NCBI GenBank assembly: GCA_035873255.1
Contig: JAYWMP010000141.1
Location: 1-29,559 of the forward strand
Length of the DNA stretch: 29,559 nucleotides
Source of the DNA: Nitrospirota bacterium
GTDB taxonomy: Bacteria; Nitrospirota; Thermodesulfovibrionia; Thermodesulfovibrionales; UBA6898
Direction: 5' to 3'
Made by a program: the position numbers and the translations under genes. Every line of letters starts with the position of its first letter. Positions within the stretch are counted from its first letter, which is position 1. Positions 835 through 22,980 of the stretch are shown here, one piece after another. The notes below the pieces were generated by a model. The model saw nothing but the letters and a program-made list of their open reading frames with translations, was not told where the DNA came from and did no database searches.

Positions 835-840
835 TATCCC

Positions 841-1078: not shown

Positions 1079-1090
1079 CAACATTATTGT

Positions 1091-1111
1091 AATTATAAGT
1101 TGATTATAATT
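1091..1111. promoter_or_regulatory. Inverted repeat AATTATAA-N5-TTATAATT, candidate operator
   Basis: Perfect 8-5-8 inverted repeat just downstream of the candidate -10. It is A/T-only in an AT-rich region, so it could be chance. Confidence 0.3.
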
Positions 1112-1199
1112 TTTTATATATTTGAAAAACTCGTTTTTAATCAGGCGGAAATTTGCCTGAAAGCAGGAAATATGACACAGTGCTAAAGAAGGCCAGGCT

Positions 1200-1700
1200 A
1201 TGAAATCAGCAGCCAAAAAAGGTGTTTCATACAGCAAAAGCCTTGTCACGGAAACCGGCAGGTATGTCCGGGCGACTGCCGAGTATACAGGTCTCCTCAC
1301 CGCAAGCTACGCAGTAAGGAGCGGCAATCTGTTAACAAGTGCCGTGAGCAGGCTAGCCGAGCCGATAAAAAAGATATCTTTAAACTCACCCCTGAAATAC
1401 TGCAGGGAGACTGTCTCCCTGGTCGCCTCATTAACAAGCGCCGGGGTCAAGGGCCTTGGCAATGTAATCCCCGGATCCGGAGTAAAGCCGCCTGTCCTCG
1501 ACCCTGAAAGGATAGCGAGGATAGAAGAGATGCTTATGCGGATAGACAGGCGTCTTGCGGAAATGGAGAGTGGGGGAAGAGTTCACAGGTCGAAGACTGT
1601 TACTCATGCTGTCACCCAGGAAAAGGCGAAGCTGGGCGGGGCAAGGGACATGCTGTTGCGTCAACTCGTTGAGGCCAACAAGCAATTGAAAGAGGCGTGA
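1200..1700 (+). CDS. Magnetosome-cluster protein of unknown function with C-terminal coiled-coil segments (possibly Man1-like)
   Basis: 166 aa ORF with basic N-terminus, heptad-like ERIARIEEMLMRIDRRLAEME and C-terminal MLLRQLVEANKQLKEA. Lies directly upstream of mamK on the same strand. Confidence 0.65.
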   Translation: MKSAAKKGVSYSKSLVTETGRYVRATAEYTGLLTASYAVRSGNLLTSAVSRLAEPIKKISLNSPLKYCRETVSLVASLTSAGVKGLGNVIPGSGVKPPVLDPERIARIEEMLMRIDRRLAEMESGGRVHRSKTVTHAVTQEKAKLGGARDMLLRQLVEANKQLKEA

Positions 1701-1744
1701 CCAACGCCTGGGCGCGTACGGAAATTAAAGAGAGGAGTTTACAT

Positions 1745-2800: not shown

Positions 2801-2803
2801 AGG

Positions 2804-3016
2804 ATGAAGGTTAAGTGGCTGCTTGCGCTGATTTTCCTTTTTCTCGCTGTTGTATTTCTGGACCAGAACAATGTGCCCGTGCCTGTAAAGGTGATCTTTG
2901 GTAAACCTTTTTATTTCCGCCTGAGTCTTATAATCCTGGTGAGCATCGGTGTCGGCGCATTGCTGACCCTGGCGGGGATCAGGCTGCGGAAGCAGATCAA
3001 CGCTAAAAGACCTTAA
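2804..3016 (+). CDS. Small two-TM LapA-like membrane protein with basic C-tail (MamL/Man2-like)
   Basis: 70 aa, hydrophobic helix - QNNVPVPV - hydrophobic helix - RLRKQINAKRP. This is the architecture of MamL-type proteins, in a cluster with no other mamL candidate. Confidence 0.6.
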   Translation: MKVKWLLALIFLFLAVVFLDQNNVPVPVKVIFGKPFYFRLSLIILVSIGVGALLTLAGIRLRKQINAKRP

Positions 3017-3029
3017 GGAGGTTAGAGAG

Positions 3030-3380
3030 ATGGGGAAGGGACTGCGTTATAATATCGAGCATATTGGAGACACCTTTATTGATGTGATAATCAGGGCGTC
3101 AGACGCTGCAAGGACATCTGCAAAAGGGATTGTTCTGACTTATGATCTGAACGACCTTAAAAGGAAGAGAAGAGAGATTGTTCGCAGCATAGGGGAGAGG
3201 CTTGTACAGTTAAGGAAAGATGAGCCCGGCTTCAACATAGCAGCGGATGAAGAGATGACCCGCCTCCTGTCTGAATTCGACAGGACCGAAAAGGAGATCG
3301 AGGCTGCCGAAACGGAGATTAAAGAGAGGCTCTACCCATGCAAGAGTGAAACGGACCAGATAAAAAATACCGGTTATTGA
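3030..3380 (+). CDS. mad10: Mad10-like coiled-coil magnetosome protein
   Basis: 116 aa, strong SD AAGGAGG, charged helix YDLNDLKRKRREIVRSIGERLVQLRK and ERLYP ending. These resemble Mad10 as I recall it; the symbol is tentative. Confidence 0.55.
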   Translation: MGKGLRYNIEHIGDTFIDVIIRASDAARTSAKGIVLTYDLNDLKRKRREIVRSIGERLVQLRKDEPGFNIAADEEMTRLLSEFDRTEKEIEAAETEIKERLYPCKSETDQIKNTGY

Positions 3381-3397
3381 GAAAGGAGGCAGGCTTT

Positions 3398-3574
3398 ATG
3401 TCAAAGATTTTCGCTGGTGTCTTTTTCGGGGTTTTTATCGGCGCCCTGGCCTACGAGACGCTTAACAGAAGTAATCCCGAGCTGGTTCAAAGAATCAGGA
3501 GTAAAGTATCGAAAAAGCTGGACGACTATCTCGGTCCGATAGAGACCATCGAAGAAGGGGCGCAGCCTGAATGA
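3398..3574 (+). CDS. Small single-TM magnetosome-cluster protein (possibly Man3-like)
   Basis: ATG at 3398 after SD AAGGAGG. 58 aa with Gly-rich TM (FAGVFFGVFIGALAY) and amphipathic tail. Stop overlaps the mamP start (ATGA). Confidence 0.65.
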   Translation: MSKIFAGVFFGVFIGALAYETLNRSNPELVQRIRSKVSKKLDDYLGPIETIEEGAQPE

Positions 3575-4530
3575 GCTTTCCCCGCAAGATTGAAAGTCCT
3601 GTCTTTGTGGTCCTGATCGTATTAATTGGAATATATTTCTATTTCATTTACCCGAGCAGTATCTCCATCCCCATCCCGGATCTGAGTTTCCGGAACTGGG
3701 ATGAGAGGTTTTCTTCTCTCAGAAACGGCGATTTTTACGGCGCCCTTGTTGGTGAGCAGGACCGATCATATCACTATCAGGATGATGACCAGCAGGCCGT
3801 TGTGTTTAATAACAACATAGCAGACCCAGGGGTCTCGCCGGGGGATTTCCTTCAGCAGGGCGGCCAGACCCAGTCAGAGTGGTTTGTCAATCCCCTGAAG
3901 CAATCGCCACAGCTTAATGACCAGGTCAACGGACTGGTTCCTGTCGGGAACGTGCCTCAGCCACCAGTCGTACAGCAAGCGGCGCCGGACAAAGTGCTGC
4001 AGGAGGGACACTGGATCGGCCTTGAAGTGATCGGCCTTTCGTCTGCTATCGCAAGGGCCAACAATATTCCTGATGATGTCAGGGGTGTACTCATAGACGA
4101 GGTGACGCTGCTTGCCGCAGAATCAGGCCTTCTTGCGGGAGACGTGATTACAGGGGTTGCCGGATCCCGGTTGCAGGACCTCCGTTCATTCAAAGATGCG
4201 ACCCGGAAGGTGGCCGGTCTTCGTCAGGCAGTGGTCTCTGTTTTCAGGAAAGACAGGAATTTCGATATAGAGGTTGTCGGAACCGAAGAACTCGGGATCG
4301 CCCAGATGGAGGCCGCACCGATGATAACTGCCGCTGCTACCCGGCCCCACGGCTATTATGGTCCCTGCGACAGGTGCCATACTATATCGAAGACCACATT
4401 CAATCCCGGTCACCTGGCAAAGGACCAGGGAGATGTACTGGCCAGGACCGCACCCCCGATCGGGACAGGCGCAGCGCGACCGCACAGGGAAAGGGGAGAT
4501 TGTACCAGTTGTCACACGATATTGCCCTGA
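3571..4530 (+). CDS. mamP: MamP: TM anchor, PDZ domain and two magnetochrome c-type heme domains
   Basis: N-terminal TM, PDZ (HWIGLEV...GVLIDEV...GLLAGDVI), two PHx5CxxCH motifs (PHGYYGPCDRCH, PHRERGDCTSCH). Confidence 0.92.
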   Translation: MSFPRKIESPVFVVLIVLIGIYFYFIYPSSISIPIPDLSFRNWDERFSSLRNGDFYGALVGEQDRSYHYQDDDQQAVVFNNNIADPGVSPGDFLQQGGQTQSEWFVNPLKQSPQLNDQVNGLVPVGNVPQPPVVQQAAPDKVLQEGHWIGLEVIGLSSAIARANNIPDDVRGVLIDEVTLLAAESGLLAGDVITGVAGSRLQDLRSFKDATRKVAGLRQAVVSVFRKDRNFDIEVVGTEELGIAQMEAAPMITAAATRPHGYYGPCDRCHTISKTTFNPGHLAKDQGDVLARTAPPIGTGAARPHRERGDCTSCHTILP

Positions 4531-5432
4531 CAAACGAGACGTCCGGCGAGTTTTCCGACTGCACCTCGTGTGAAAAGAGGGCCGTCTGGGTTTCTGTTCT
4601 TCTGAACCTGGCCCTCACGATCTTCAAGGCCGTTATAGGTGTCTTCAGCGGAAGTAAGGCAGTGCTCGGTGACGCCCTCTATTCATTAAAAGACTTCGTG
4701 GCCTCCCTTGCGGTGCTCATAGGTGTGAGGGTCTCCAACAAACCGGCCGACAAGAACCATCCTTATGGACACGGCAAGATAGAATACGTAGTGGTTTTTC
4801 TTATCAGCATCCTCATAATCGGGGCGTCAGTATTCCTCTTTGTTCACTCTGTAAAGAATCTCTGGCTTGCCTTTGACGGTCATCACATGTCTCCGCCGAA
4901 GTTCATCGCCTTTTTTGCCGCTATTATATCAGTAATAGCGAATTACAAGCTTTCCGGCTATCTCCGCTGTGTCGGCACGAGGCTCAAGAGCCCTGCTATA
5001 CTGGCCAGCGCTGAACATAACCATTCCGACGCCACGTCCTCTATCCTTGTTGCAGGGGCGATTCTCGGGGCAAGGTTCGGTTTTTATTTCCTTGACCCCC
5101 TGGCCGCCGCCATCGAGACCGTGGACCTGCTGAGGCTGAGTGTCAACATGTTGAACCACTCCCTGACAGGTATGCTCGACTCGAGTGAGAGCGCTGATGT
5201 GAAGGAGGAGATAAGGACGGTCGCCGCCCTTGTCCCGGGTGTCAGGGGGATCCCGATGCTCAAGTCAAGGCGGGTTGGCCAGAATAAGTGGATAGATATC
5301 ATCATCAAAGTTGATCAGGACCGCTCTGTTGAAGAGGGACACAGGATCGGTCTGCATGTTGAGCAGACGCTGAAAAAAGCCATCGGTAATATTGCCGGTA
5401 TAACTTTATCCGTGGAACCGGAGGTCAAGTGA
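4509..5432 (+). CDS. mamM: Magnetosome CDF iron transporter MamM (start codon uncertain, non-ATG)
   Basis: CDF fold with MamM-type sites DALYSLKD (Y-x3-D) and HNHSD, HPYGHGKIEY, and N-terminal CxxC. No in-frame ATG near the expected start; candidates are TTG 4509, TTG 4500 and CTG 4527. Confidence 0.88.
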   Translation: MSHDIALTNETSGEFSDCTSCEKRAVWVSVLLNLALTIFKAVIGVFSGSKAVLGDALYSLKDFVASLAVLIGVRVSNKPADKNHPYGHGKIEYVVVFLISILIIGASVFLFVHSVKNLWLAFDGHHMSPPKFIAFFAAIISVIANYKLSGYLRCVGTRLKSPAILASAEHNHSDATSSILVAGAILGARFGFYFLDPLAAAIETVDLLRLSVNMLNHSLTGMLDSSESADVKEEIRTVAALVPGVRGIPMLKSRRVGQNKWIDIIIKVDQDRSVEEGHRIGLHVEQTLKKAIGNIAGITLSVEPEVK

Positions 5433-5545
5433 CTCTTGCGTATTTTCGGGGTTGTCCACGGAGAGACAGAGAAGATCCGGCCCGGTTGCATGCGCGAGAC
5501 GGGATGCCTGGCGTTGCAGGAATTTGGAATAGTGAAAGAGAATAG

Positions 5546-6202
5546 ATGAAAAGAGACTGGCTCATTAAGGCGCTCGACCTGACGGGAGCTTCCCTGCCAT
5601 CAATACAGAGGAAGGTGGCGGAGCGGAGGCTTGAATTCGAGCTACGACATGAAGGGAGGTCAAAGGAATTTATCTCACATGTCCTCGGCAGCCGCCTTAT
5701 AAAGGAGAAGGCATTGCGGACAGGTGGTATGGGCGGGATTCTTGCCGCGCCTGCAACGCTCCCGGTGATCGGCGCCATAGGAACAATAGCCGTGGGTGTG
5801 ACTGTGGACCTCTTCTATCTCATGCGTGCCCAGGTGGATCTCTGCTATGAGATGTCCGCTACTTACGGGACAGAGTTGGACGAAGAGGAATTAAAGGCTG
5901 TTGTGCTCGCCCTGCTCGGCCTTTCTGGCAGCGCAGGGGCCCTTAAGGGGATAGCCGCAACCACGCTGAAGAATGTGGTTGACCATATGTCTTCGAGCTA
6001 CCTGAGGAAGGGGTTGAGCAAGTCGGCGGCGGAGGTGGCTGAAAAGATGGGCCCCCGGATACTGGGCAAGGCCTACAGGCTGATCCCCCTGCTGGGTATA
6101 CCTCTGAGCGCCTCCATCAACATGGTATCAACCATGATGGTCGGCAACCAGGCGAGAAAGTATTTCAGGACGACGGGAGAGGGCTTGATTAATGAGATAT
6201 AA
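5546..6202 (+). CDS. EcsC-family-like protein (possibly Mad31-like)
   Basis: 218 aa with EcsC-like pattern (TGGMGGILAAP...DLFYLMRAQVDLCYEMSATYG...RLIPLLGIPLSASIN...VGNQARKYF). Overlaps the next gene by 11 nt. Confidence 0.6.
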   Translation: MKRDWLIKALDLTGASLPSIQRKVAERRLEFELRHEGRSKEFISHVLGSRLIKEKALRTGGMGGILAAPATLPVIGAIGTIAVGVTVDLFYLMRAQVDLCYEMSATYGTELDEEELKAVVLALLGLSGSAGALKGIAATTLKNVVDHMSSSYLRKGLSKSAAEVAEKMGPRILGKAYRLIPLLGIPLSASINMVSTMMVGNQARKYFRTTGEGLINEI

Positions 6203-6752
6203 GGCGAAAATCCTGCTGATCACATTGTCGGTATTCCTGGTCTCTTTTGCAGCTTTTGGCTACAACAGGTTTATTGACAAATTGCACCTTCTCCATATAG
6301 CCAATGGCAGGGTTGAGGCCGAGCTGCAGCGCAGGTATATCGTCAACTCCCGGAGCAGGGCGGCGGCTGAGCAGTACCTGGAGACAGAGGGTAAGATACA
6401 GGAGCACCTGATTGAGCTTAATCGGCTCATCAGGTCCGGCGTGCAGGCAGGCAGGCAGGCGGAGACCGAAAAGGAATTGGTCGGACTGGTCGAAAGGCTC
6501 GATGTGTTGAAGGAGGAATATCCAGGGCTCAGAACAAAGGGCCCCTATCTCTTTCTGATGGAGACTATCCAGGATTCGGGCTGGCGGGTGACCATGGAGA
6601 AGTTCCGATACAATGAAGCTGTTTATGATTACAACCTTATAAGGCATATATTCCCCTTTAAAACCCTTGCCTTCCTGTTCGGTTTTCACGAGGAGTCTTT
6701 CATGAAGGCGGAGAAGGGAGCAGAACGGGTTCCCGGCGTCGGTCGGTCTTAA
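6192..6752 (+). CDS. mamQ: Divergent LemA-family protein, second MamQ paralog
   Basis: N-terminal TM, then VEAELQRR...YPGLR...YNEAVYDYNLIRHIFPFKTLAFLFGF, a LemA signature. Confidence 0.75.
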   Translation: MRYKAKILLITLSVFLVSFAAFGYNRFIDKLHLLHIANGRVEAELQRRYIVNSRSRAAAEQYLETEGKIQEHLIELNRLIRSGVQAGRQAETEKELVGLVERLDVLKEEYPGLRTKGPYLFLMETIQDSGWRVTMEKFRYNEAVYDYNLIRHIFPFKTLAFLFGFHEESFMKAEKGAERVPGVGRS

Positions 6753-6761
6753 GCAGAGCGA

Positions 6762-7685
6762 ATGCAATACGAAGAATGTATAAAATGTGCAAAGTGGTCC
6801 CCGCGCCTGAGCGTGTTGGGCAATCTCCTTGCGGCTGTCTTTAAGTTCGTTGTGGGAGTGCTCGCCGGCAGCAAGGGGCTGGTGGCCGACTCTCTCCATT
6901 CAGCGGCTGACGCCATCTCTTCGCTCTTTATACTCATATCCCTGAAGATATCGGGCAAGCCCAGGGACGAGGACCATCCGTACGGTCACGGCAAGGTGGA
7001 GTACATCAGTTCTCTTGTAGCGAGTGTCTTCCTCTTTTTCGGCGCCACGGCAATATTTCTTGATGCCCTGCACACATTCAGCGCCGGCGGAGTGAGGGGT
7101 GTCCCTAAGAATGCCGCGATAGTGGCGACCGTCATCTCTCTCATCTATAGCTACCTGATGTACTCGTCGAACAAGTGTACCGGCACACAGATGGAAAGCC
7201 CCGCCCTTCTGGCTGACGCGGCTGAAAGCAAGGCTGACAGTGCGGCCTCTATTGCGGTGCTGGCCGGGCTTATAGGCACGAAGATTGGGTTTGTTCATGC
7301 CGATACCATCGCCGCCGTGGTGGTATCACTCCTGGTCTTTCACATGAGCGTGGAGATCTTCTTCACCGGCGTGCACGGCCTGGTGGATGTGGCTGTGGAC
7401 AAGGAACTGCTTGATGAAATCCTGGGAGTGAGCCAGGCAGTGGAAGGGGTCAGGGGAGTGAGTGATATAAAGACCCGCCGGATGGGACAGAAAAACGCTG
7501 TCGACATCAGTGTGGAAGTGCCGAGCGAGACCAGCGTCCTTGAGGCACACAGGATAGCCGGGAACGTCAAGGCCGCGATACAGGACCGGATAGGCAGTGT
7601 GGAAGCAATATTTGTGAGGACTGTCCCTGAAGGGACTCCCTGGGCGAGGCGGCTTGTGAGGAATATCCTGGATTTCAGATTGTAG
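6762..7685 (+). CDS. mamB: Magnetosome CDF transporter MamB
   Basis: N-terminal MQYEECIKC, ADSLHSAAD (H-x3-D), HPYGHGKVEY, and C-terminal cytosolic domain (KTRRMGQ...EAHRIA). Confidence 0.9.
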   Translation: MQYEECIKCAKWSPRLSVLGNLLAAVFKFVVGVLAGSKGLVADSLHSAADAISSLFILISLKISGKPRDEDHPYGHGKVEYISSLVASVFLFFGATAIFLDALHTFSAGGVRGVPKNAAIVATVISLIYSYLMYSSNKCTGTQMESPALLADAAESKADSAASIAVLAGLIGTKIGFVHADTIAAVVVSLLVFHMSVEIFFTGVHGLVDVAVDKELLDEILGVSQAVEGVRGVSDIKTRRMGQKNAVDISVEVPSETSVLEAHRIAGNVKAAIQDRIGSVEAIFVRTVPEGTPWARRLVRNILDFRL

Positions 7686-7729
7686 GTTGTTATTTCGGAA
7701 GGTTATAACCTGTAATCTGAAATGCAGGA
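7666..7729 (+). other. Long RNA stem-loop spanning the mamB stop and the mamB-mamA spacer
   Basis: 7672-7690 pairs with 7705-7723 (19 bp, 3 G-U). After one G/G mismatch, 7666-7670 pairs with 7725-7729. 14-nt loop, no U-tract. Confidence 0.6.
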
Positions 7730-7750
7730 CGATAAAAGGAGGTATTATCA

Positions 7751-8404
7751 ATGTCATTAATTGATTTGAGCGAACTCAGGTTTTTTCTCAAGGCGGTTTC
7801 CATTAATGCCGGAAAAGTTGTTGACACACTGGTCGACAGGTATAACCAGTTGCTTCAGCTGAAACCGGAGCAGGCACGGGATGTATATTTCGGGATCGGC
7901 AGGGACCTTGAAAAAAAGGGTGACCGTCCGGGCGCCATAAAGGCCTACAAAAAGGTGCTGGCGGAACTGAAACCCGACGATACGGAGGTCCTCTTCAGGC
8001 TCGGAAGGACTTACCTTGAATCCGGCATGGCCAGGGAGGCCTCGGAGGTGTTCGAGAGGTTCACGGTGATAGAGAGTAGTTCTCCCATCGCTTGGTACCT
8101 GCTCGGGGTGGCCTGCTTTTCGATTGAAGAACCCGCGAAGGCGGAGGGGGCCTTCAAGGAGGCGATAGGCCTTGACAGCGGCTATGCCGAGGCCTATTAC
8201 AAGCTCGGGCTGATATACGACGGTCGGGCTGATTTTGACAAGGCGATCGAGATGTATCAGAAGACAATCGCCCTGAAGCCAGATTTTGTAAAGGCCTACC
8301 AGAGCATAGGTCTGACGTACGAGGGGAAGGGCATGCGTGAAGAAGCGGTGAAATATTTCAAGAAATCGATTGAACTGGACGAGAAGAAACTACAGTACAA
8401 ATAA
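7751..8404 (+). CDS. mamA: TPR scaffold protein MamA
   Basis: Tandem TPR motifs (e.g. AYYKLGLIYDGRADFDKAIEMYQKTIALKP), SD AAGGAGGT, position between mamB and mamI. Confidence 0.88.
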   Translation: MSLIDLSELRFFLKAVSINAGKVVDTLVDRYNQLLQLKPEQARDVYFGIGRDLEKKGDRPGAIKAYKKVLAELKPDDTEVLFRLGRTYLESGMAREASEVFERFTVIESSSPIAWYLLGVACFSIEEPAKAEGAFKEAIGLDSGYAEAYYKLGLIYDGRADFDKAIEMYQKTIALKPDFVKAYQSIGLTYEGKGMREEAVKYFKKSIELDEKKLQYK

Positions 8405-8440
8405 AAAATTAAACTTTGATGGTATGAAAAGGAGGAGATC

Positions 8441-8659
8441 ATGTTAAATATTGTATTCGGCCTTATTGCGATATGCCTTGGGATCTGGGGGTTATTCAAC
8501 TACTGGTGGTATGTGCTTGATGTCTTTATCGCCATACTACCCATCGTGCTTATTACAGGTGGAGTGGTGGCACTTCTCGCGGGCATAAAGAATACAGGGC
8601 TGAGGACCAAGGTCAGGGAAGACAAAGCTCGGAATGCCGAGAGCGTTTCCGACATATAG
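8441..8659 (+). CDS. mamI: Magnetosome membrane protein MamI
   Basis: 72 aa, two TM helices, LGIWGLFNYWW and GGVVALLAGIK motifs typical of MamI. Confidence 0.88.
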   Translation: MLNIVFGLIAICLGIWGLFNYWWYVLDVFIAILPIVLITGGVVALLAGIKNTGLRTKVREDKARNAESVSDI

Positions 8660-8676
8660 AGATAAGGAGACGAGTT

Positions 8677-10428
8677 ATGGAAAGCGGAAAGAATACAAGC
8701 CAGCCAGGCACGGAAGGAAGGGCCCCGGCCGGGACCTGTCCCCGGAACTATAAGCCCTGGGTCTGGACACTCGTTGTTATGGCCATCCTGACGCTCGCCT
8801 GGGCTGTATACGAGAACGTCAGGGAGGACGGCATCGTCGATGCACTGTTAGATGCAGGAGATTTTGCCGCCGCGAAGAACGGGGACCGAGGTCCAGTCAC
8901 GCGGACGGCTGCCGTGAAGGGGACTGTTGGCGGCCTGCAGTTATCCTACCACGACATCATTGAGACGGTGAGACCGGCGGTGATCAGTGTGAACGCAGCT
9001 GTCGCACCGGCACAGATGGGCAGTGCGCCGGCAGGAACAACGCCCAGCCTGGTGGCCGGGCTTCCCGCAGTGAATTATACGAGGGTGGGCTCCGGAGTGA
9101 TAATAGACTCGAATGGTTACGTGCTCAGCAGCCTCCATGTTATAAAGGGGGCCTCTGTACTCAAGGCAACGGTTTACGGCAAGGGTGGCTCCAGGGAATA
9201 TCCGCTGAAGGTGGTGAATGCCGACAACAAGACCGACCTGGTGCTTCTGAGGATCCAGGGCGAAGAACGGTTTCCCTACGCCACACTCGGAGATTCGGAC
9301 ATGATGAGGACCGGCGATGTGGTGCTCGCGATGGGGAGCCCCTTTGGCTTTGACCAGACCATAACCGCCGGCATAATAAGCAGCAGGCACAGGACCCTGC
9401 GCATAGGCAATGAGATCTATGAGGATGTTATCCAGACGGACACCCCAATCAACAAGGGCAACAGCGGAGGCCCACTGGTGAACGTGAGGGGTGAAGTGAT
9501 AGGGCTAAACACTGCAATTTATTCTCCGACAGGCTCTTTCAGCGGGATAGGTTTTTCCATTCCCGTCAACAGCGCCTCCACCCTGGTGTCCGGAGTCGTG
9601 GACTTCAGGGACGCCCCTGTCCAGGTGGCGGGAGGACAGATCGTGGCCTGGACGAGGCAGGGCAGACAGAGGGGTAACTCCTACAAGCTGCCGGGAGGAC
9701 AGATCATCAACCCACCCCACCAATATCGCGGCAAGTGCAGGGACTGCCACCCGCAACTGAAAAAGGGGATTACTGGTTTCAATGTACAACAGGCGGCCCC
9801 AGTCCCCGGCATGCAACAAAACAGCGAGCCCTTTCTCGGAATGAATCTCATAGAGGTGAACGACGTGGTGGCGAGGAGATTCGGTCTCCTTAACCCCCGG
9901 GGCCTTTTAGTTGACAGGGTTTATCCCGGGACTCCGGCTGCCGAAGCAGGGCTGTCAAGGGGGGACATCATTATGAGGGTCGATGGCCGGAAGATAAGGG
10001 GCCTCAAGCTCTTCAAAGAAGTCCTCGCCTCCAAGAGACTGGGGGAGAGTTTTGACCTGGTACTGTGGCAAAACGGCGGCAGGGAGACGGTTACGGTAAG
10101 GAGCATTCCCTACCCGGCCTTTATGCCGGGGCAGCAACCCGGAGGCACTCCGGGGCCTGCGGAGTTTGAGTGGCTCGGCGCTGAATTCATGCCCCTGGAC
10201 GCCGCCCTTTCGGCTTACGTGAAGCATGGCGTCTATGTGGCGGAGGTCGAGGGATTCCTGTCCGGGTCAGGCCTGCAAAAAGGCGACATAATTCAGGCCT
10301 TTGACGGTAAAAATGTGACGGACATGAACGCATTTATCGGTCTTGCGAAGAGGGCCAGGCCCAGGAAAGGCTTCCTGCTCGAAATCCTCCGCTCCGGGAG
10401 TCCCATGTATATATCGGTGAAGGGATGA
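8677..10428 (+). CDS. mamE: MamE: HtrA/DegP serine protease with one magnetochrome and two PDZ domains
   Basis: TM anchor, trypsin domain with triad motifs (GSGVII...SSLHV, DLVLL, GNSGGPL), PHQYRGKCRDCH heme motif, two PDZ domains (FLGM..., WLGA...). Confidence 0.92.
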   Translation: MESGKNTSQPGTEGRAPAGTCPRNYKPWVWTLVVMAILTLAWAVYENVREDGIVDALLDAGDFAAAKNGDRGPVTRTAAVKGTVGGLQLSYHDIIETVRPAVISVNAAVAPAQMGSAPAGTTPSLVAGLPAVNYTRVGSGVIIDSNGYVLSSLHVIKGASVLKATVYGKGGSREYPLKVVNADNKTDLVLLRIQGEERFPYATLGDSDMMRTGDVVLAMGSPFGFDQTITAGIISSRHRTLRIGNEIYEDVIQTDTPINKGNSGGPLVNVRGEVIGLNTAIYSPTGSFSGIGFSIPVNSASTLVSGVVDFRDAPVQVAGGQIVAWTRQGRQRGNSYKLPGGQIINPPHQYRGKCRDCHPQLKKGITGFNVQQAAPVPGMQQNSEPFLGMNLIEVNDVVARRFGLLNPRGLLVDRVYPGTPAAEAGLSRGDIIMRVDGRKIRGLKLFKEVLASKRLGESFDLVLWQNGGRETVTVRSIPYPAFMPGQQPGGTPGPAEFEWLGAEFMPLDAALSAYVKHGVYVAEVEGFLSGSGLQKGDIIQAFDGKNVTDMNAFIGLAKRARPRKGFLLEILRSGSPMYISVKG

Positions 10429-11168
10429 AAGAGATAATAAAGAAACTATATGCCGAGGAGCTGGAACTCATAGCTCCAGCTCCTCCCGCTGTGGACACCA
10501 GGAAGAGAAGCCTCCTGGTTCGCCTGAGGGCCTTCCTGTGGGAACGGCATACGGGTCCGATCAAGGTGGCCCTTGCGGCGTTTGTTCTGGCCGCCATCTC
10601 AGCCACCATCTATTACTATAATATGTTCACGATCAACAACTTCAAGGTGAGGCTTGAGATGGCGCAGATCGAGGCCCACCTCCAGAGACGCAACGATCTT
10701 ATCCCGAACCTGGTGGCTGCTGTAACGGATTACATGGATTATGAAAAGGACATATTCAGGCATGCAGCCGATGTGAGGGCCGCCATCAAGGGGATAGAGA
10801 TTTCCGCCAGGGATGTCTCCAGGCCTGAAGACTTCATGTCGGCGCTCACCAGGTTCCAGGCTGTGGCAGAGAATTATCCCCTGCTTAAGGCCTCTGACGC
10901 GTACCAGACGCTGATGAAGGAGCTTGCCAATACCGAGACGCTTATTGCGGAGGCGAGGATGAATTACAACAGGGCGGCCAATTATTATAACTCCCGGCTC
11001 CGGATGTTTCCTGCTAATCTTTTCAATCTGTTTCTCAGTTTCTATCCCGTGGATACCTTTGAATCCGAGGTGCTGGCAAAGACCGCTCCCGGAATGAGAG
11101 GGGCTGATGAGGTGAAAGGCATGGTCCAGGATCCAGGGACAGAAGGCCCGGTGGAACAGACACCCTGA
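10425..11168 (+). CDS. mamQ: LemA-family magnetosome protein MamQ
   Basis: KKLYAEELEL N-terminus, TM, then IEAHLQRRNDLIPNLV, YPLLKAS and YNSRLRMFPAN LemA motifs. ATGA overlap with mamE. Confidence 0.9.
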   Translation: MKEIIKKLYAEELELIAPAPPAVDTRKRSLLVRLRAFLWERHTGPIKVALAAFVLAAISATIYYYNMFTINNFKVRLEMAQIEAHLQRRNDLIPNLVAAVTDYMDYEKDIFRHAADVRAAIKGIEISARDVSRPEDFMSALTRFQAVAENYPLLKASDAYQTLMKELANTETLIAEARMNYNRAANYYNSRLRMFPANLFNLFLSFYPVDTFESEVLAKTAPGMRGADEVKGMVQDPGTEGPVEQTP

Positions 11169-11244
11169 GTGTCCGGCAGGTATATAGATGTGAGCGAAAA
11201 AACGGACCACGGAATTGCCGCCAGGCCGAATAAAGGGAGTTTTA

Positions 11245-12138
11245 ATGAGAAAAGTCTTTCTGCTTTTGACATTTATAGTAGTAATATTAGCGATCTGTTT
11301 GCCTGCCGGTGTTGCTGAAGCGGCTACGCATACTACAGGGGTGGCGAACACCTTTCTACTTGTTATTATAGGGATTTTTGTCGGGGCCGTGGGAACCCTG
11401 ATAGGCGCCGGCGGCGGATTCCTGGTTGTGCCTGTCCTTATAATCTTCTACGGCTTCTCCCCGCAGTTTGCCGTCGGCACATCCATGGCGGTTGTATTTT
11501 TTAATGCCGTTTCAGGGACCTTTTCATACATGGCCCAGAGCAAGGTGGATTACGAATTGGGTGTCAAGTTTGCCGTGGCGGCAGTGCCGGGTGTATTTAT
11601 CGGGGCCTTCGCCACCCAGGCCGCAAATGTCACCTTTTTTTCAGGCCTCTTCGCCTGCCTGATGCTGACGATGGCCTATCTGCTTATCTTTGTCAGGGAC
11701 CTCCAACTCGTTACATCGGCGGCAGGCAGCTCCAGTGCGAGGATAATCCGGGACTCTTACGGCGCTGAGCACGTTTATACCACGGACCTCTCCATAGGGA
11801 CAGGAGGCAGTTTTCTGGTCGGAATCATATCGGGTCTCTTCGGTATCGGCGGTGGGATAATTCATGTTCCTTTAATGAGTTTTATAGGTATGCCCATGCA
11901 TATCGCCACAGCCACTTCGCATTTTATTATAACCATCACAAGTTTTATCGGCATGCTCATTTTTCTCGGACTGAAGACCGTTGAGATCGATTTCGCCATA
12001 CCCCTCGGGATCGGGGCGATAATAGGCGCTTACGCAGGGGCGAATCTGGCGTTGATTACGGGAGCGGAGGCCATAAAGAAGCTTATCGCGGTTCTGCTTT
12101 TATTGGGCGCGGCCAGATTGCTTGCCGGAGTCTTGTGA
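11245..12138 (+). CDS. mamO: TauE/SafE-family multi-TM protein, MamO C-terminal homolog (MamO-Cter)
   Basis: GTLIGAGGGFLVVP and GLFGIGGGIIHVP TauE repeats, no protease domain. ATG at 11245 follows SD AAGGGAG; position after mamQ. Confidence 0.72.
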   Translation: MRKVFLLLTFIVVILAICLPAGVAEAATHTTGVANTFLLVIIGIFVGAVGTLIGAGGGFLVVPVLIIFYGFSPQFAVGTSMAVVFFNAVSGTFSYMAQSKVDYELGVKFAVAAVPGVFIGAFATQAANVTFFSGLFACLMLTMAYLLIFVRDLQLVTSAAGSSSARIIRDSYGAEHVYTTDLSIGTGGSFLVGIISGLFGIGGGIIHVPLMSFIGMPMHIATATSHFIITITSFIGMLIFLGLKTVEIDFAIPLGIGAIIGAYAGANLALITGAEAIKKLIAVLLLLGAARLLAGVL

Positions 12139-12195
12139 CGCCAGTTCCTGAACAGGGTACAGTCTAAAACAAAATTTATGAGTGAGGAGGTAATA

Positions 12196-13875
12196 ATGAC
12201 TAACAATTCATCAAGCAGGCCGGCCCTGCTGGCCGGTGTGGCCAAGGCCCTGAACGCCGGCGGTAAAGCCGTGGTTTCCGTGTATGACACAGGCTCGGGC
12301 CTGGTGGAGAAGATCTTCTCCACCGTAAGCCAGGTGACTGTCCTGCCCGAGAAGGCGATGGACCTCGCTGAACGACTCGGATCGGTAGAAAAGTGGAAGA
12401 TAGAAAAGGAGATCAAGGCATCCCGGGCCAGGATAAAGGAACTGTATTACGAGATAGGCTGTATGGAGGCCGGGCTTCCTGAATCCGCCGGACCTTCCGA
12501 GAGGGAGCCATTAAAGAGGTTGATTGCGGAAGTCAGGGAATATGAGCAGGAGATTGGGAGGCTGAAGACCAGGCTTGCGGAGATTGGAGCTGCGCAGACC
12601 GGGAGGATGCCGGCTGAAGCCGATGTGGTCAAATCCGTGCAGAGCGCTATTGAAGAAGGGTTGAAGTCCGGGGTCTTTGACAACCCAGGGGAAAAGGCCC
12701 TCTTTGAGCGGGTGGCGAAGGATCTCCTCGACAACAATCTCGGTGTCAGGCTGCTGGCTGTGGCGGAGCTTGGGAAGTTCGGCAACGAGGCCTGTGTCCC
12801 CGTGCTGATCAGTGCCGCAGGGTTCAGGACTCCTGAACTCCTGTCTGAAATAATAAGCATGCTTGTGAGTATAGCTGACAAGCGGGCCGTTCCCTTATTG
12901 AAGGAGCAGTTGTCCTCCCCAGTCTACAGGGTGAGAACGGGTTGCCTGAGGGGGCTTTACAGTCTGGCGGATGAAGAGGAACTACTCCCCCTTCTGACCG
13001 GGGCCCTTGGTGACAGCCATCCGGATGTGAGGGTGACGGCGGCAACCCTGCTTGGATGGAAGGGCAGTCCTGCTGCTGTCGAGGCGCTTTCTCTCTGCCT
13101 GAAGGACAGGGACGAAGCCGTGAGAAGGGCGGCTGTATCCGCCCTTGCCAATATAGGGGACAGTGCTGCCGTGCTTCTCTTGATCAACGTGTTGGGAGAC
13201 AGGAGCTCAGAGATACGCCAGAAGGCGCTTGAGGCCATAACGTCTCTCACTGGCAAGGAGATAGCATTTGATGTCCAGGTGGAAGGAACGGCCCTCTCCG
13301 AGGCTATCGACCGGCTGAAAGAGTGGTGGAAGAGTGAATCAGGGGAGGATCGGTCTGAAGTCGGTATCGAGGTGGAAGCTCAGGCCGGTGTTGCGGATGA
13401 AGTTGAGCCTGTTGCGGATGAAGGGCGTGAGCAGGAGACGGTCCAGGCACGCGAAGAGGAGATGGAGAGGGCAGACGTGGAAGCTCCCGGTGCTGAAAAA
13501 GAACCCGGGATCGATATCCCCGGGGTGGAGGAGGCACTGGCGAGTATTTCATCCGAGGCCCTCGCTGAGATAGAAGAGGCGGAATCTCCGGAAGAAGAGG
13601 AAAGGGTTGTCTCTGAAGGGCGGGATGACATGGATATCGAGGTGACCATCGCCGAGGAGACTGAAGGTGACTCTGAAAAAGAGATGAATCTTGAAGCGGT
13701 AATCGCCGAAGAGGTGAAGGAAGAACCCGGTGGTGAGGTGGAAAGCCCCAGTGAGAGCAAGCTGAAGAAGATGCAGCGGGCCGACCTTGTAACCCTCTGC
13801 AAGGAGTGGGGGATTGAGTGTGATGAGACATTTACAAAGGCGGAGATGATAAAACGTCTGACAGGACGGAAGTGA
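12196..13875 (+). CDS. mad23: Mad23-like HEAT-repeat protein with N-terminal coiled coil, acidic linker and small C-terminal helical domain
   Basis: PBS-lyase/HEAT repeats (LGDSHPDVRVTAATLLG, LKDRDEAVRRAAVSALA, LGDRSSEIRQKALEAI). ATG at 12196 follows SD GAGGAGG; position after mamO-Cter. Confidence 0.75.
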   Translation: MTNNSSSRPALLAGVAKALNAGGKAVVSVYDTGSGLVEKIFSTVSQVTVLPEKAMDLAERLGSVEKWKIEKEIKASRARIKELYYEIGCMEAGLPESAGPSEREPLKRLIAEVREYEQEIGRLKTRLAEIGAAQTGRMPAEADVVKSVQSAIEEGLKSGVFDNPGEKALFERVAKDLLDNNLGVRLLAVAELGKFGNEACVPVLISAAGFRTPELLSEIISMLVSIADKRAVPLLKEQLSSPVYRVRTGCLRGLYSLADEEELLPLLTGALGDSHPDVRVTAATLLGWKGSPAAVEALSLCLKDRDEAVRRAAVSALANIGDSAAVLLLINVLGDRSSEIRQKALEAITSLTGKEIAFDVQVEGTALSEAIDRLKEWWKSESGEDRSEVGIEVEAQAGVADEVEPVADEGREQETVQAREEEMERADVEAPGAEKEPGIDIPGVEEALASISSEALAEIEEAESPEEEERVVSEGRDDMDIEVTIAEETEGDSEKEMNLEAVIAEEVKEEPGGEVESPSESKLKKMQRADLVTLCKEWGIECDETFTKAEMIKRLTGRK

Positions 13876-13923
13876 TATGACACGGATAGTTATATCCCGC
13901 TTATGAACGAGAGGCGTCAGTAA

Positions 13924-15915
13924 ATGAAAACGTGTTCTGAGTGTGACGGGGATGACCCTTTATGGGACCACAAAAGCCGTACTTTGGCTATCGTTGGAAA
14001 TCTTAATGTTGGAAAATCCGTGCTTTTTGAGCGTATGTGTGGGACCAGGGCTGCAAGTTTCAATGTCCCGGGCACAACGGTGTCGGTCAGGAAAGGACAT
14101 ATAAAGGGAACGGACTATGACGTATACGATACACCCGGGGCGTATTCGGTTTTTTCGATGAATGAGGATGAAAGGGCCTCAAGGGATCTCCTCCTGATGG
14201 GAGGGGACTCTATCAGCGGTGTTGATGGGATAATCCTTGTGGCGGATGCAAAAAACCTGAAGCGTTCGATTGCCATTGCACTCCAGTATGCCGGGTACGG
14301 ACTGCCCATGCTCCTGGTTGTTAATATGGTGGATGAGGCTGCCTCCCGGGGTATTGAGGTTGACAGTGATAGTCTCTCGGAAGTTTTCGGAATAGACGTC
14401 TGTACAACGGTCGCCAGCGACGGGATCGGGGTCAGCAGTGTCATATCCCGGCTTAATGATATGCGGGTTCCACGAAGACTGGTCGAATATCCGGCGGTGG
14501 TCAAGGGATTCCTCGAAATCATGGACAAGCTCTTAACGTCGACCGGGGTCTCACCGGAGGCGCTGGGGCTACTCCTGCTTAATGGCGACAGGAGGGCGGA
14601 GGAATATGTGGAGAGAAACTTCGGTCCCGGGATGTTGAAGCAGGTCAAGGACCTTATTGATGAATTCCGGCGGGAGGCCCCGGGGGAGTGCAGGGTCCAG
14701 ATGGGGACACTCTATAACATGAAGGCGGTGCAGATCGCCTCCATGGTCCAGGAAGTTGAGCCCCCATCCAGAAACGAGCACCTTATAACCTTTGGAGACT
14801 GGTGCACGCAGTTGCACACGGGGATCCCGATTGCCTTCGCGGTCCTGGTGCTGATGTATCTGTTTGTGGGTGTCTTCGGGGCCACCTTCCTTGTGGATGC
14901 CATAAACGGTACTGTCTTTGAGGGCTTCCTGATTCCCTGGGTGAACAAGGTTGTTGAGCCCATACCGAGTCCGCTACTGCGTGACATGATAGTCGACCCT
15001 GATTTCGGTGTATTGCCCACTGGTGTCTTCCTTGCCCTCGGGCTTGTATTGCCGGTTATCTTCTGTTTTTATATAGCATTCAGGATACTGGAGGACTCGG
15101 GATATCTTTCGCGGATCTCGATCCTTCTTGACAGGATTTTCAAAAAGATGGGACTCAACGGCAAGGGTGTCATACCTCTTGTGATGGGGTTTTCCTGTGT
15201 AACAATGGCCATTCTGACGACGCGAATGCTCGACACAAAGAAGGAGAGATACATTGCAACCTTCCTCCTTCTCCTCGGCATGCCCTGCGCCCCTTTGCTT
15301 GCGGTCATGCTTGTTATACTGAATAAGTTGCCCATATCGGCAACCGTTACCGTATTCGGGATAATCTTTTCTCAGATGCTCATTGCAGGTCTTCTGGCAA
15401 ACAGGATATTGCCCGGAGAGAGGGCCTCTCTCCTGATGGAGATTCCTCCCATGCGGGTGCCGAACCTCTTCCAGGTGCTGAAGGTATCGGCGTCAAAGAC
15501 CTGTTTTTTCATGAAAGAGGCGGTGCCCATATTTATCATAGCATCCCTTGTTGTGTTTCTTTTTGAAAGGGCGGGGGGATTGGCGGCCCTTGAGAGGTTT
15601 TTCAGGCCTGTGATCAGCGGATTCATGGGACTACCCGAAAAGAGCGTGCAGGTTTTTATCAAGACCGTGATCCGCAGGGAGAGCGGGGCCGTTGAGCTTG
15701 AGCACATCAACGGTATGTATACTAACCTGCAGCTTGTCGTTAACCTGCTGGTGATGACATTTCTGGCGCCGTGTATTAACGCGACCATCGTTCTTTTCAA
15801 GGAACGTGGTGGAATGGCGGCCTCCGCAATCATCGGGGCCGTGACCGTATATGCCGTTGTAATAGGGAGCATAGTAAGCCAGACCTGCCGTTTTTTCGGA
15901 ATTACATTCACATAA
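13924..15915 (+). CDS. feoB: Ferrous iron transporter FeoB
   Basis: G motifs GNLNVGKS, PGTTV, DTPG, NMVD. Membrane domain with LEDSGYLSRI, GFSCVTMA and MEIPPMRVP gate motifs. Confidence 0.93.
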   Translation: MKTCSECDGDDPLWDHKSRTLAIVGNLNVGKSVLFERMCGTRAASFNVPGTTVSVRKGHIKGTDYDVYDTPGAYSVFSMNEDERASRDLLLMGGDSISGVDGIILVADAKNLKRSIAIALQYAGYGLPMLLVVNMVDEAASRGIEVDSDSLSEVFGIDVCTTVASDGIGVSSVISRLNDMRVPRRLVEYPAVVKGFLEIMDKLLTSTGVSPEALGLLLLNGDRRAEEYVERNFGPGMLKQVKDLIDEFRREAPGECRVQMGTLYNMKAVQIASMVQEVEPPSRNEHLITFGDWCTQLHTGIPIAFAVLVLMYLFVGVFGATFLVDAINGTVFEGFLIPWVNKVVEPIPSPLLRDMIVDPDFGVLPTGVFLALGLVLPVIFCFYIAFRILEDSGYLSRISILLDRIFKKMGLNGKGVIPLVMGFSCVTMAILTTRMLDTKKERYIATFLLLLGMPCAPLLAVMLVILNKLPISATVTVFGIIFSQMLIAGLLANRILPGERASLLMEIPPMRVPNLFQVLKVSASKTCFFMKEAVPIFIIASLVVFLFERAGGLAALERFFRPVISGFMGLPEKSVQVFIKTVIRRESGAVELEHINGMYTNLQLVVNLLVMTFLAPCINATIVLFKERGGMAASAIIGAVTVYAVVIGSIVSQTCRFFGITFT

Positions 15916-15931
15916 TAAAGGAGGCCAGCCT

Positions 15932-16594
15932 GTGCTGAACGAAGAACAGGAAGAGATACTGGAGGCGATCTGGATTGCAGGGGAGTACAAAAATTGTTCG
16001 ATGGATTCCGTCAGGAATCTCTGCGTCATAGACTTCTCTGATGCTGACGTTGCGGAGCTTGAGCGGAAGGGTCTTGTCGTAAGGAATACCGATAAAGTGC
16101 TTTTTTCGGGCGAGGGAAAGAAGATATCCGAGGGCATCATAAGGAGACACCGTCTGGCCGAAGTGCTGGTGACGAGTATCCTGAAACTGAAGGAGTCCGA
16201 CATGGAAAAGGTGGCCTGCAAGGTCGAACACGCCCTGCTGCCGGAGGTGGAGGAATCGATCTGCACGCTCCTTGGACATCCGGAACTATGCCCCGACGGA
16301 AAGCCGATTCCAAAGGGCAGATGTTGCGAAGACAGGCGCAGGGAGGTGAATAATACCGTGGTCAGCCTGGTTGAACTCAATCCCGGGGAGAGTGGCAAGA
16401 TTACTTATATCAAGCCGGGGAGTCATTCGAACCTGCATCAGCTGATATCCCTTGGCCTGCACCCGGGGATTATAGTTACACTGCACCGGTCAAACCCGGT
16501 CTTCTGTGTGAAGTTTGAAAATACCGAGGTTGCACTGGACAGGGACATAGCCGCCAATATATTTGTGTGGAGGGTTAATCCTGACGGATGTTAG
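15932..16594 (+). CDS. DtxR/MntR-family metal-dependent regulator with C-terminal FeoA (SH3-like) domain
   Basis: RRHRLAE, ACKVEH, LGHPELCPDGKPIP motifs and FeoA-like tail (LISLGLHPG...EVALDRDIAANIFV). GTG start after SD GGAGG. Confidence 0.85.
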   Translation: MLNEEQEEILEAIWIAGEYKNCSMDSVRNLCVIDFSDADVAELERKGLVVRNTDKVLFSGEGKKISEGIIRRHRLAEVLVTSILKLKESDMEKVACKVEHALLPEVEESICTLLGHPELCPDGKPIPKGRCCEDRRREVNNTVVSLVELNPGESGKITYIKPGSHSNLHQLISLGLHPGIIVTLHRSNPVFCVKFENTEVALDRDIAANIFVWRVNPDGC

Positions 16595-21367: not shown

Positions 21368-21464
21368 AATCCTCCTGATATAATTCCCGCCGCGGCCTGG
21401 AACCCGGAAGGTTGGTTTTCTTGTTCCCGTTATCGCCAGATAGGTTAAATTACATTGATCTCAA

Positions 21465-21502
21465 TTTTCAATTGAATATACATTTTTCAATTGAATATAC
21501 AT
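21465..21502. repeat. Perfect tandem 19-bp repeat, each unit carrying the palindrome TTCAATTGAA
   Basis: TTTTCAATTGAATATACAT at 21465-21483 and 21484-21502, in a divergent intergenic region. Confidence 0.85.
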
Positions 21503-21810
21503 TCGGGCTTCAGTATAATGGAGACAACTGGAATTATACTGTATGTCTGTTAATAAATAAAACCGCTTGCCGGTCAGGCGTACAGGTAACATAAATTTCA
21601 GAATGTGGGATACCGGGGTTTTGATATAAGGGCGAAGGAATTGGCCAGTTATTTGAATCTGGAACAAGTGGGCCCGGTTGAAGTCGCCACAACAAGGTTT
21701 TTAAATCAAAATCAGGGGGATACGTTACGAAAATAGAATGTCTCAGGCATACATTGGAGCCGGCTGGTGGAAAAACGGACCCGCTTTGATGGACATAAGA
21801 GGCTTTTGTT

Positions 21811-22902
21811 ATGAGTAACATTTATTCAGACGACTTCTGCATGGCATGCAGGCTCACGAAGCGTCCGCTCGGCCGGGTGCTGGTTGACGGCGGTTTTATT
21901 ACTCCGGAGAACCTTGGCCGCGCACTGGAAGAGCAGAAGGAAAGCAACGAATTTCTCGGCGTAATACTTGTCCGCATGGGCCTGCTGAGCCGTGACGATA
22001 TAAGAGCCGCTATTTTGGTGCAGAGGTGTCTTATTTCACCGGAAGCGGCTGTCAGGTCCGCCGCTGGCGAACGTCAGCTTCTGGGCAGGCTCCTTCTTCA
22101 GGCAAGGCGTATTACGCCGAAAAAGCTGTATATGGCCTTGCATGAACATGCTGGGTCCGAAAGAAAACTTGGAGAGGCGCTGCTGCGTCTCGGATATATT
22201 ACCCGAAGTGAACTTGATTCAGTACTGGCGTTTCAGCAGCATCAAAGTTCCCAGCGGATCGCGGGCCCCATCAGGCTGGGTGAAATACTGGTGGCGACCG
22301 GCCAGATTACCCGTAAACAACTCGAGGACGCACTGGAGAGGCAAAGACATTGTAACGCGAAAATCGGGGAAGTGCTGGTCGAATCAGGTGATCTGCAGCC
22401 CCGGCAGATTGCGTGCGGGCTGAAACTGCAGAATAAACTGATAACCGCTGCTTTAGTGGCTGTGTTGTCTCTGGCGCCCTGGGCAAAAGCTTATGCCGCG
22501 ACACCCGGAAGCGCCGGAGGTCAGAATTTATCCGTAACAGCCGCTGTCGAGGCCAATTCCGACCTGGAGGTGATCTATCAGTCGCCGGAAATGGTGGTCA
22601 CCAATATGGATGTGCTTCGCGGACATGTGGATTCTCCCTCTGCTTCCCATCTGAGGGTCACGAACCGTGGCGATACCGGTTATATGCTGGTCTTTGATGG
22701 CCTGGGCGGGCCTTTCAGGGAGGTTATGCTGAACGGGATGGGCAGAGACGTTCATATCAGCTCTAACAGGGGGTGGGTTGTTCAGCCTTATGCCGGTCGC
22801 GGCGTATATGCCTTTGAGCTGAGCTACAGGTTTATTCTGTCGGAAAACGCGCAGCCCGGCACATACGCATGGCCGCTGACAATATCGGTCAGTCCGATAT
22901 GA
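21811..22902 (+). CDS. Triple MshEN (c-di-GMP-binding) domain protein fused to a signal/TM segment and a pilin-like beta domain
   Basis: Six 24-aa xLGxxLxxxGxxxxxxLxxxLxxQ-type motifs in three pairs with 5-aa linkers, then KLITAALVAVLSLAPWAKAYA, then a beta-rich domain ending PGTYAWPLTISVSPI. Confidence 0.75.
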   Translation: MSNIYSDDFCMACRLTKRPLGRVLVDGGFITPENLGRALEEQKESNEFLGVILVRMGLLSRDDIRAAILVQRCLISPEAAVRSAAGERQLLGRLLLQARRITPKKLYMALHEHAGSERKLGEALLRLGYITRSELDSVLAFQQHQSSQRIAGPIRLGEILVATGQITRKQLEDALERQRHCNAKIGEVLVESGDLQPRQIACGLKLQNKLITAALVAVLSLAPWAKAYAATPGSAGGQNLSVTAAVEANSDLEVIYQSPEMVVTNMDVLRGHVDSPSASHLRVTNRGDTGYMLVFDGLGGPFREVMLNGMGRDVHISSNRGWVVQPYAGRGVYAFELSYRFILSENAQPGTYAWPLTISVSPI

Positions 22903-22980
22903 CATGCGGTGTTCGGTCGAATTCGTGGAAGATGGCAAAAGGGCCTGTGAGGGGGCACTCATGGCGGTCACTGTGTTACA

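Follow-up and report, generated by a model that had tools for sequence, protein, structure and literature searches.

The stretch of DNA analysed here, referred to throughout as the window, comprises 29,559 nt from the metagenome-assembled genome of a magnetotactic member of the Nitrospirota. An open reading frame (ORF) on its forward strand, at 21811-22902, encodes a protein in which three tandem MshEN_N modules precede a segment resembling a Sec signal peptide and a predicted periplasmic β-sandwich domain. The features of this gene, with the evidence for each, are as follows (AF2, AlphaFold2 model).

21797..21802, + strand: Shine-Dalgarno-like AAGAGG, 8 nt before the ATG (read from the sequence).
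21811..22902, + strand: ORF encoding 363 amino acids (aa) plus stop (ORF reading; full-length homologs; 90% identical ortholog in the same synteny).
21865..22023, + strand: MshEN_N module 1, aa 19-71 (NF053729 match, motif spacing, four helices in AF2).
22078..22236, + strand: MshEN_N module 2, aa 90-142 (NF053729 match, motif spacing).
22273..22431, + strand: MshEN_N module 3, aa 155-207 (NF053729 match, motif spacing; last helix enters the hydrophobic segment in AF2).
22432..22497, + strand: signal-peptide-like segment, aa 208-229 (read from the sequence; resembles the signal peptides of stand-alone relatives).
22528..22554, + strand: donor-strand-like segment LSVTAAVEA, aa 240-248 (alternating hydrophobic and small residues; conserved; unstructured in AF2).
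22558..22899, + strand: predicted periplasmic β-sandwich domain, aa 250-363 (AF2, Foldseek; no Pfam family; 813 cluster representatives).

The initial annotation, made from the letters of the sequence, had allowed that homologs might turn out as two separate ORFs. A word-indexed search returned 479 homologs. Nearly all of the 120 that were listed are 350-400 aa long and 45-55% identical over 94-100% coverage, and they come from many independent assemblies; more than 100 of those listed are full-length and retain the architecture. Both halves of the protein, the MshEN modules and the C-terminal domain, are conserved in the homolog alignment, and an ortholog 90% identical was found in another sample within the same synteny (UvrC-PfkB-APH-DUF502-gene-exonuclease-CtpA-M23 peptidase-FtsX-FtsE). 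Since the whole architecture is conserved in hundreds of homologs, chance matching is excluded by this together with the E-values. An assembly fusion or a lost stop was ruled out by the full-length homologs found everywhere and by the same-synteny ortholog, and an assembly or annotation artefact joining two genes has a negligible probability, given that a colinear ORF without stops recurs in hundreds of independent contigs, which represent various samples and phyla. An antisense ORF of 147 aa (22528-22971, − strand) overlaps the gene and is probably a by-product of its GC-rich coding frame.

Six 24-residue motifs were found just as initially annotated, in three pairs joined by the 5-residue linkers KESNE, AGSER and RHCNA. 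The half-motifs start at aa 19, 48, 90, 119, 155 and 184, 29 residues apart inside each pair, and only the one at aa 155, which begins the third pair, opens with RLG, again as noted at the outset. The NCBIfam model NF053729 (c-di-GMP motif, MshE-related) has a cut-off of 38 bits; the protein scored 144.6 bits over three stretches, and in a genome search modules 1, 2 and 3 scored 56.9, 50.4 and 56.0 bits, each above that cut-off. The best match among solved structures was Thermus PilF with its three GSPII domains. The Pfam search of the protein gave a PatA_N/DUF4388-type match as its sole result, with no T2SSE_N match, and the gaps between modules are just 12-18 residues long; on both counts the MshEN_C subdomain (about 80 aa, α/β) is absent. 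The proposal of three MshEN domains therefore stands as to number and family but not as to kind, the units being minimal MshEN_N modules rather than full MshEN domains. Four helices per module were predicted by AF2, with predicted local distance difference test (pLDDT) scores mostly of 80-92. As an isolated 62-residue MshEN_N binds c-di-GMP with a dissociation constant of 0.35 µM (PMC5013675), minimal modules like these can bind. Triple MshEN_N arrays also precede other, longer C-terminal regions that do not match the β-sandwich domain, in open frames of 333-629 aa (examples from a sample of the phylum are G221:C8:232892-233581, G209:C3, G131:C1 and G095:C2:2685565-2686335).

Ligand contacts in each half-motif are made by R1, L2, G3, L17, L21 and Q24 (Wang et al. 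2016, PMC5013675), which allowed the modules to be graded one by one. The half-motifs of module 1 open PLG (P19) and FLG (F48); both Gly3 and both Gln24 are kept, and position 1 is basic in neither half. The first half of module 2 is degenerate, with L90, R99 for Gly10 and H113 for Gln24, and its second half is canonical (KLG...Q142). Module 3 is fully canonical (RLG...Q178 and KIG...Q207, with R155 and K184) and is the only one with every ligand-contact residue. Across 119 relatives and all six half-motifs, Gly3 is kept in 97-100% and Gln24 in 76-100%; position 1 is basic only in halves 2b, 3a and 3b, being L/P in 1a, L/M/Q in 1b and L/M/F in 2a. Measurable binding by the GSPII-A domain of PilF required Arg at position 1 of the second half-motif and both Gln (PMC12002112). 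From these residues we regard module 3 as a strong candidate c-di-GMP binder and module 1 as a doubtful one, and our reading of module 2 is that its binding would be weakened in this protein. About 11 GGDEF-domain genes (12 matching stretches) are present in the window's genome, so c-di-GMP is made there, and seven other loci carry MshEN motifs.

The same residues bear on a different explanation, that the modules have lost c-di-GMP binding and serve as a cytoplasmic scaffold that supports, for instance, oligomerisation, localisation or the binding of a different protein or nucleotide, ahead of an exported protein that is otherwise ordinary. Position 1 is non-basic in three of the six half-motifs across the family, near-perfect motifs may fail to bind, as PilF GSPII-A shows (PMC12002112), and Pfam gives only the PatA_N/DUF4388-type match. 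Against this stand the R/K, L, G, L, L and Q of both halves of module 3, kept in 82-100% of the 119 relatives, the near-invariant Gly and Gln contacts of all modules and the score of each module above the NCBIfam cut-off, and we consider a scaffold quite unlikely.

An exhaustive HMMER search with aa 205-363 as query gave 813 cluster representatives at E up to 0.001; matches to giant proteins were discarded as spurious hits to RTX-repeat proteins. The representatives fall into length classes. At about 150-190 aa the C-terminal domain stands behind an ordinary N-terminal signal peptide, and at about 200-280, 300-340 and 355-375 aa it has one, two or three MshEN modules in front. The Sec-like segment that had been placed at about 22430-22500 is present at nt 22432-22497 and consists of K209, a 13-residue core (L210-A222), the helix breaker P223 and A227-Y-A229. 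A basic n-region, a core within the 7-15 residue range and small residues at −3 and −1 agree with what Sec and signal peptidase I recognise; its position does not, as it begins at residue 208, after about 207 residues predicted to be cytoplasmic. In the stand-alone relatives an ordinary N-terminal signal peptide occupies the equivalent place before the domain. The median uncharged run is 15 residues in fused and stand-alone forms alike, and [AV]xA follows it in 72% of 203 fused and 66% of 53 stand-alone proteins, compared with 12-18% in control windows, which argues that the cleavage site is still under selection. The core of the fused forms is unusually conserved (L210 98%, A213 95%, L215 95%, A217 94%, L219 92%, S220 92%), which argues for more than targeting. 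AF2 placed residues 197-229 in one unbroken helix, running from the ligand-contact residues I200, L204 and Q207 on through the hydrophobic segment; a conserved core sharing a helix with the last ligand-binding residues argues for functional coupling.

Such coupling could also belong to a permanent bitopic inner-membrane receptor, in which the segment would be an uncleaved signal anchor and signalling would run from inside to outside. Binding of c-di-GMP would then shift the oligomeric state or the position of the helix, and the tethered domain would capture or free a periplasmic partner, in pilus operons the chaperone, the usher or the subunits. The conservation of the core at six positions, including the small-xxx-small pair A213...A217, the single predicted helix from ligand site into membrane, the need of any control after export for a physical link across the membrane, and the placement of the gene inside chaperone-usher operons in relatives all speak for an anchor. 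It is harder to reconcile with the shortness of the core (13-15 uncharged residues), with the helix breaker and [AV]xA site that come after it, with the frequency of that site, which is as high as in genuine signal peptides and far exceeds background, and with the fact that the domain clearly works elsewhere as a free secreted protein. The anchor is rather doubtful, although nearly as likely as control of export or release, to which we return below.

The initial annotation had also described a β-rich C-terminal domain of about 130 aa, and in this it was right: the C-terminal 134 aa of the ORF, which end in PGTYAWPLTISVSPI, are predicted to form an all-β sandwich whose final strand reads G-x-Y...L-T-I-S-V. 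For the full protein, AF2 with a 36-sequence alignment gave a mean pLDDT of 80, residues 227-247 being unstructured (pLDDT below 50); aa 244-363 folded alone gave the all-β sandwich at pLDDT 90.6. No Pfam or NCBIfam family matched the C-terminal domain, nor did Pfam match its stand-alone relatives. At or near the top of a Foldseek search with the domain model were CanA (E 3e-4, template modelling (TM) score 0.55), CfaB, the pilin domain of PapG and PapA (TM 0.55), followed by PapK/G, MyfA, PsaA and SafD, all with weak scores; the pilin matches had a probability of 0.97-1.0 yet TM scores of only 0.39-0.55 and a best E of 3e-4. Jelly-roll carbohydrate-binding modules, GOLD, APC10 and FlhE were interleaved among them with close scores, and a full-length Foldseek search added nothing to that with the domain. 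Aligned by hhalign with the spore coat protein U (SCPU) proteins of neighbouring operons in relatives, the domain is colinear from end to end (signal peptide, first strand and final G-x-Y...L-T-v-t-v), at a probability of only 6%, and a profile search of the PDB with the C-terminal domain gave no match. Homology to SCPU pilins is therefore unsupported. Just past the predicted cleavage site, aa 240-248 (family pattern I/V-x-V-x-A-x-V-x-A) are conserved yet lie outside the predicted fold, and are what a donor strand would look like. We conclude that the domain is pilin-like at both ends, yet no demonstrable member of any pilin family.

The connection with pili rests on gene neighbourhoods. Four of seven metagenomic homologs examined by contig lie inside SCPU-gene-PapD-usher-SCPU operons, one of which has the gene between chaperone and usher. 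Within a 401-genome sample of the phylum, 8 of 22 full-length copies are about 3 kb or less from an usher gene on the same strand, and the C-terminal domain occurs in 23 of 38 usher-positive as against 11 of 363 usher-negative genomes, a cross-tabulation in which related genomes are not independent. Of 20 genome loci found with a 9-sequence alignment and spread over several phyla (Nitrospirota, Desulfobacterota-type 'delta proteobacteria', Syntrophorhabdaceae, Geobacter, Thermoanaerobaculia and Paraburkholderia), eight have a chaperone and/or usher gene in the flank and two more an SCPU gene only. Among them the relative in cultured Paraburkholderia elongata 5N (L051:6047-7102) has two modules that pass the NCBIfam model and is convergent with a PapD-usher-SCPU operon. 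The chaperone-usher/SCPU link of the family thus has strong genomic support in relatives, and the domain is elsewhere shown or predicted to be a small secreted accessory protein of archaic (SCPU/Csu-type) chaperone-usher pili. The likeness to such pilins that had been suggested at first sight holds as co-location and co-occurrence with ushers in relatives, but not as sequence membership, and the fold is only weakly pilin-like.

At the window's own locus the neighbours are a divergent DUF502 gene and a convergent gene for a PolB-type exonuclease, and no pilus or secretion gene adjoins the ORF. The lack of an adjacent ATPase, usher or chaperone gene, remarked on from the start, was borne out in the window and extends to the whole assembly (1.93 Mb, about 95% complete), in which Pfam searches for Usher, PapD_N and SCPU gave no match, and tblastn and hidden Markov models built from the operon proteins of relatives found no chaperone-usher gene. 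The operon-carrying genomes G040 and G057 were matched as positive controls for the Pfam searches. Three other near-complete genomes that carry the gene were likewise without an Usher, PapD_N or SCPU Pfam match. In a maximum-likelihood tree of 27 copies, all eight labelled orphans fall on one side of a branch with support of 90/93, and one more copy, in whose genome an usher gene lies on another contig, groups with them. Besides the window's genus, the orphan clade includes representatives of a second family in the same order; this would fit one escape from the operon and long retention thereafter. Pilus control as such cannot be the role of the gene in these usher-free genomes. Nearly all pilus-linked copies (16 of 17) have retained the donor-strand-like motif, but only 3 of 11 orphan copies have done so, those three being from the window's genus; the motif is thus tied to the pilus context, and the window's genus is the least decayed among the orphans. 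Sister orphan lineages always have a convergent gene for a 98-aa single-domain PilZ protein following the orphan gene (L037:3527-3823, L040:1331-1624, L041:9139-9432 and L042:1744-2037). It is absent at the window's locus; the PilZ homolog of the window's genome, 41% identical, lies on a different contig (G000:C297:5991-6212). A conserved neighbour shared by the orphan copies was therefore rejected.

Upstream of the gene, the 443-bp intergenic region at 21368-21810 is 89% identical across three genomes of the genus. It is better conserved than the synonymous sites of the gene (synonymous divergence, dS, 0.26) and therefore probably holds regulatory elements. It contains the following repeat.

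21465..21503, + strand: tandem 19-bp repeat, 2.1 copies of the unit TTTTCAATTGAATATACAT, which contains the palindrome CAATTG (Tandem Repeats Finder, 100% matches).

A promoter-like TTGAAT-17-TATAAT lies directly downstream of the repeat, and the unit is single-copy in both same-genus relatives; the repeat is a possible operator. A riboswitch or other known RNA upstream of the gene was rejected, as Rfam gave no match to the 443-bp region or the window even at E up to 1.

These data bear on whether the gene in this genome is simply what remains of a pilus operon since lost, and now does little or nothing. No usher, chaperone or SCPU gene was found in the assembly or the same-genus genome, the ratio of nonsynonymous to synonymous substitutions (dN/dS) is not low, the same-genus ortholog has CTG in place of the start ATG, and most other orphan copies have a decayed donor-strand-like motif. 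A leftover would not be expected, however, to form one clade in at least two taxonomic families with every ORF intact and the invariant residues of both halves kept, to retain a conserved locus and upstream region throughout the genus, with 89% identity against a dS of 0.26, or to keep the strand motif in the window's genus, and we judge this explanation improbable indeed.

Elsewhere in the window, positions 1-16594 hold a magnetosome gene cluster with iron-uptake genes. The Mam names used here are our reading of the Pfam domains.

1697-2800: MamK-like actin.
3571-4530: magnetochrome protein.
4374-5432 and 6762-7685: two cation-diffusion facilitators.
6192-6752 and 10425-11168: two LemA/MamQ-like genes.
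7751-8404: tetratricopeptide repeat (TPR), MamA-like gene.
8677-10428: trypsin-PDZ, MamE/O-like gene.
13924-15915: FeoB.

The same stretch also holds genes for an M48 peptidase, TauE, a HEAT-repeat protein and DtxR-FeoA.

Two models for the protein remain leading, a transmembrane c-di-GMP receptor, as set out above, and an exported pilin-like protein gated by c-di-GMP. The second is the one that we tentatively adopt, as a possibility rather than an expectation: the protein is a member of an undescribed but widespread family and has three MshEN_N modules fused to a signal-peptide-like segment and a predicted exported β-sandwich, and c-di-GMP would control export and/or release. Three cytoplasmic four-helix modules are predicted to be joined directly to the n-region of the segment, and c-di-GMP would be bound by module 3 at the least, the last helix of which extends into the hydrophobic part. 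Binding would control a post-translational membrane step, namely Sec export and/or release by signal peptidase I at A-Y-A, so that the level of free periplasmic domain would track that of the second messenger. Control of export or release is favoured because it accounts for both the retained cleavage site and the conserved core. The window's copy belongs to the orphan clade, which probably left the pilus operon; since its genome has no chaperone-usher genes, the exported domain must use another partner or act alone. A fuller version is that c-di-GMP bound to module 3 decides translocation and/or cutting by signal peptidase I, giving the energy-free chaperone-usher pathway a direct post-translational input in pilus operons, and that the same switch was re-used independently of pili in the orphan clade; taken in all its parts, this is unlikely.

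Several points weigh against control of export or release. We know of no case in which Sec export or cleavage by signal peptidase is gated by a second messenger. The window's genome offers no pilus system for the gene to serve, and a strongly conserved core is atypical of a cleaved signal peptide and suits a permanent anchor equally well. F48 and H113 replace the Arg and Gln needed in PilF GSPII-A, so that modules 1 and 2 lack them, and the PilF study also found that context can abolish binding by a motif that is itself perfect (PMC12002112). Comparison with the same-genus ortholog gives a dN/dS of 0.32 for each of the three parts of the protein, which indicates moderate constraint only, and that ortholog (L039:8001-8003; L007, genome G308) has CTG where the window has the start ATG, and also Leu for Met11.

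If the preferred reading is true, a ligand-binding helix that passes into the export signal of a periplasmic domain associated with pili would represent a novel type of output for a second messenger, and a route of c-di-GMP to periplasmic assembly would become testable. Chaperone-usher pili are, to our knowledge, thought to assemble without an inner-membrane component or direct signal input, and the control of such pili by c-di-GMP that we know of is transcriptional. Full-text searches on MshEN with chaperone-usher systems or signal peptides, and on c-di-GMP with spore coat protein U, turned up no account of this architecture, in line with the initial annotation, which knew of no characterised protein that has it. 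New here are the orphan clade in usher-free genomes, the grading of each module for its competence to bind, and the finding that conservation of the donor-strand-like motif depends on genomic context. The orphan clade indicates that the module can outlive the pilus system and cautions against reading every member as a pilus regulator, while the P. elongata 5N relative beside its chaperone-usher operon could serve as an experimental model.

Among known systems, the closest to the cytoplasmic part are MshE of Vibrio cholerae and PilF of Thermus thermophilus (PDB 5HTL and 6F8L), which have the same 53-residue unit, here predicted as a four-helix bundle (PMC5013675, PMC11731258, PMC12002112). As in PilF, there are three tandem units, and probably not all of them are competent to bind, which is likewise true of PilF. 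Unlike both, the protein described here has MshEN_N only, without MshEN_C or an ATPase, and what follows its array is no cytoplasmic enzyme but a hydrophobic export segment with an exported domain. NfrB and the MshEN-fused glycosyltransferases (PMC8669469) resemble it in carrying MshEN_N on a membrane protein that produces a surface structure, and NCBIfam gave partial matches of the protein to the MshEN region of NfrB. The module of NfrB, however, is C-terminal and activates a cytoplasmic catalytic domain, whereas here there is no enzyme and the output would lie across the membrane.

The exported part is best compared with the SCPU/Csu-type (archaic, sigma) pilins (PF05229), which it resembles in size, predicted export by a signal peptide, an alternating hydrophobic N-terminal strand and a C-terminal strand of the form G-x-Y-x-x-x-L-T-v-t-v; relatives of the protein are, moreover, encoded inside SCPU-chaperone-usher operons. 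It differs in having no Pfam match, an hhalign probability of 6% and Foldseek TM scores of at most 0.55, and is not a demonstrable pilin. LapD of Pseudomonas fluorescens, with a degenerate GGDEF-EAL pair, a HAMP domain and two membrane helices, controls a surface adhesin and is similar in logic, in that a c-di-GMP receptor in the cytoplasm is linked through the inner membrane to an output domain in the periplasm. It is unrelated in sequence and fold to the present protein, which has MshEN_N modules and one signal-peptide-like segment instead. Lastly, MrkH of Klebsiella pneumoniae, a PilZ-type transcription activator of type 3 fimbriae, is a case in which c-di-GMP controls a chaperone-usher pilus; MrkH acts on transcription, whereas the window's protein, if its family acts on pili, would do so at the protein level, in or across the inner membrane.

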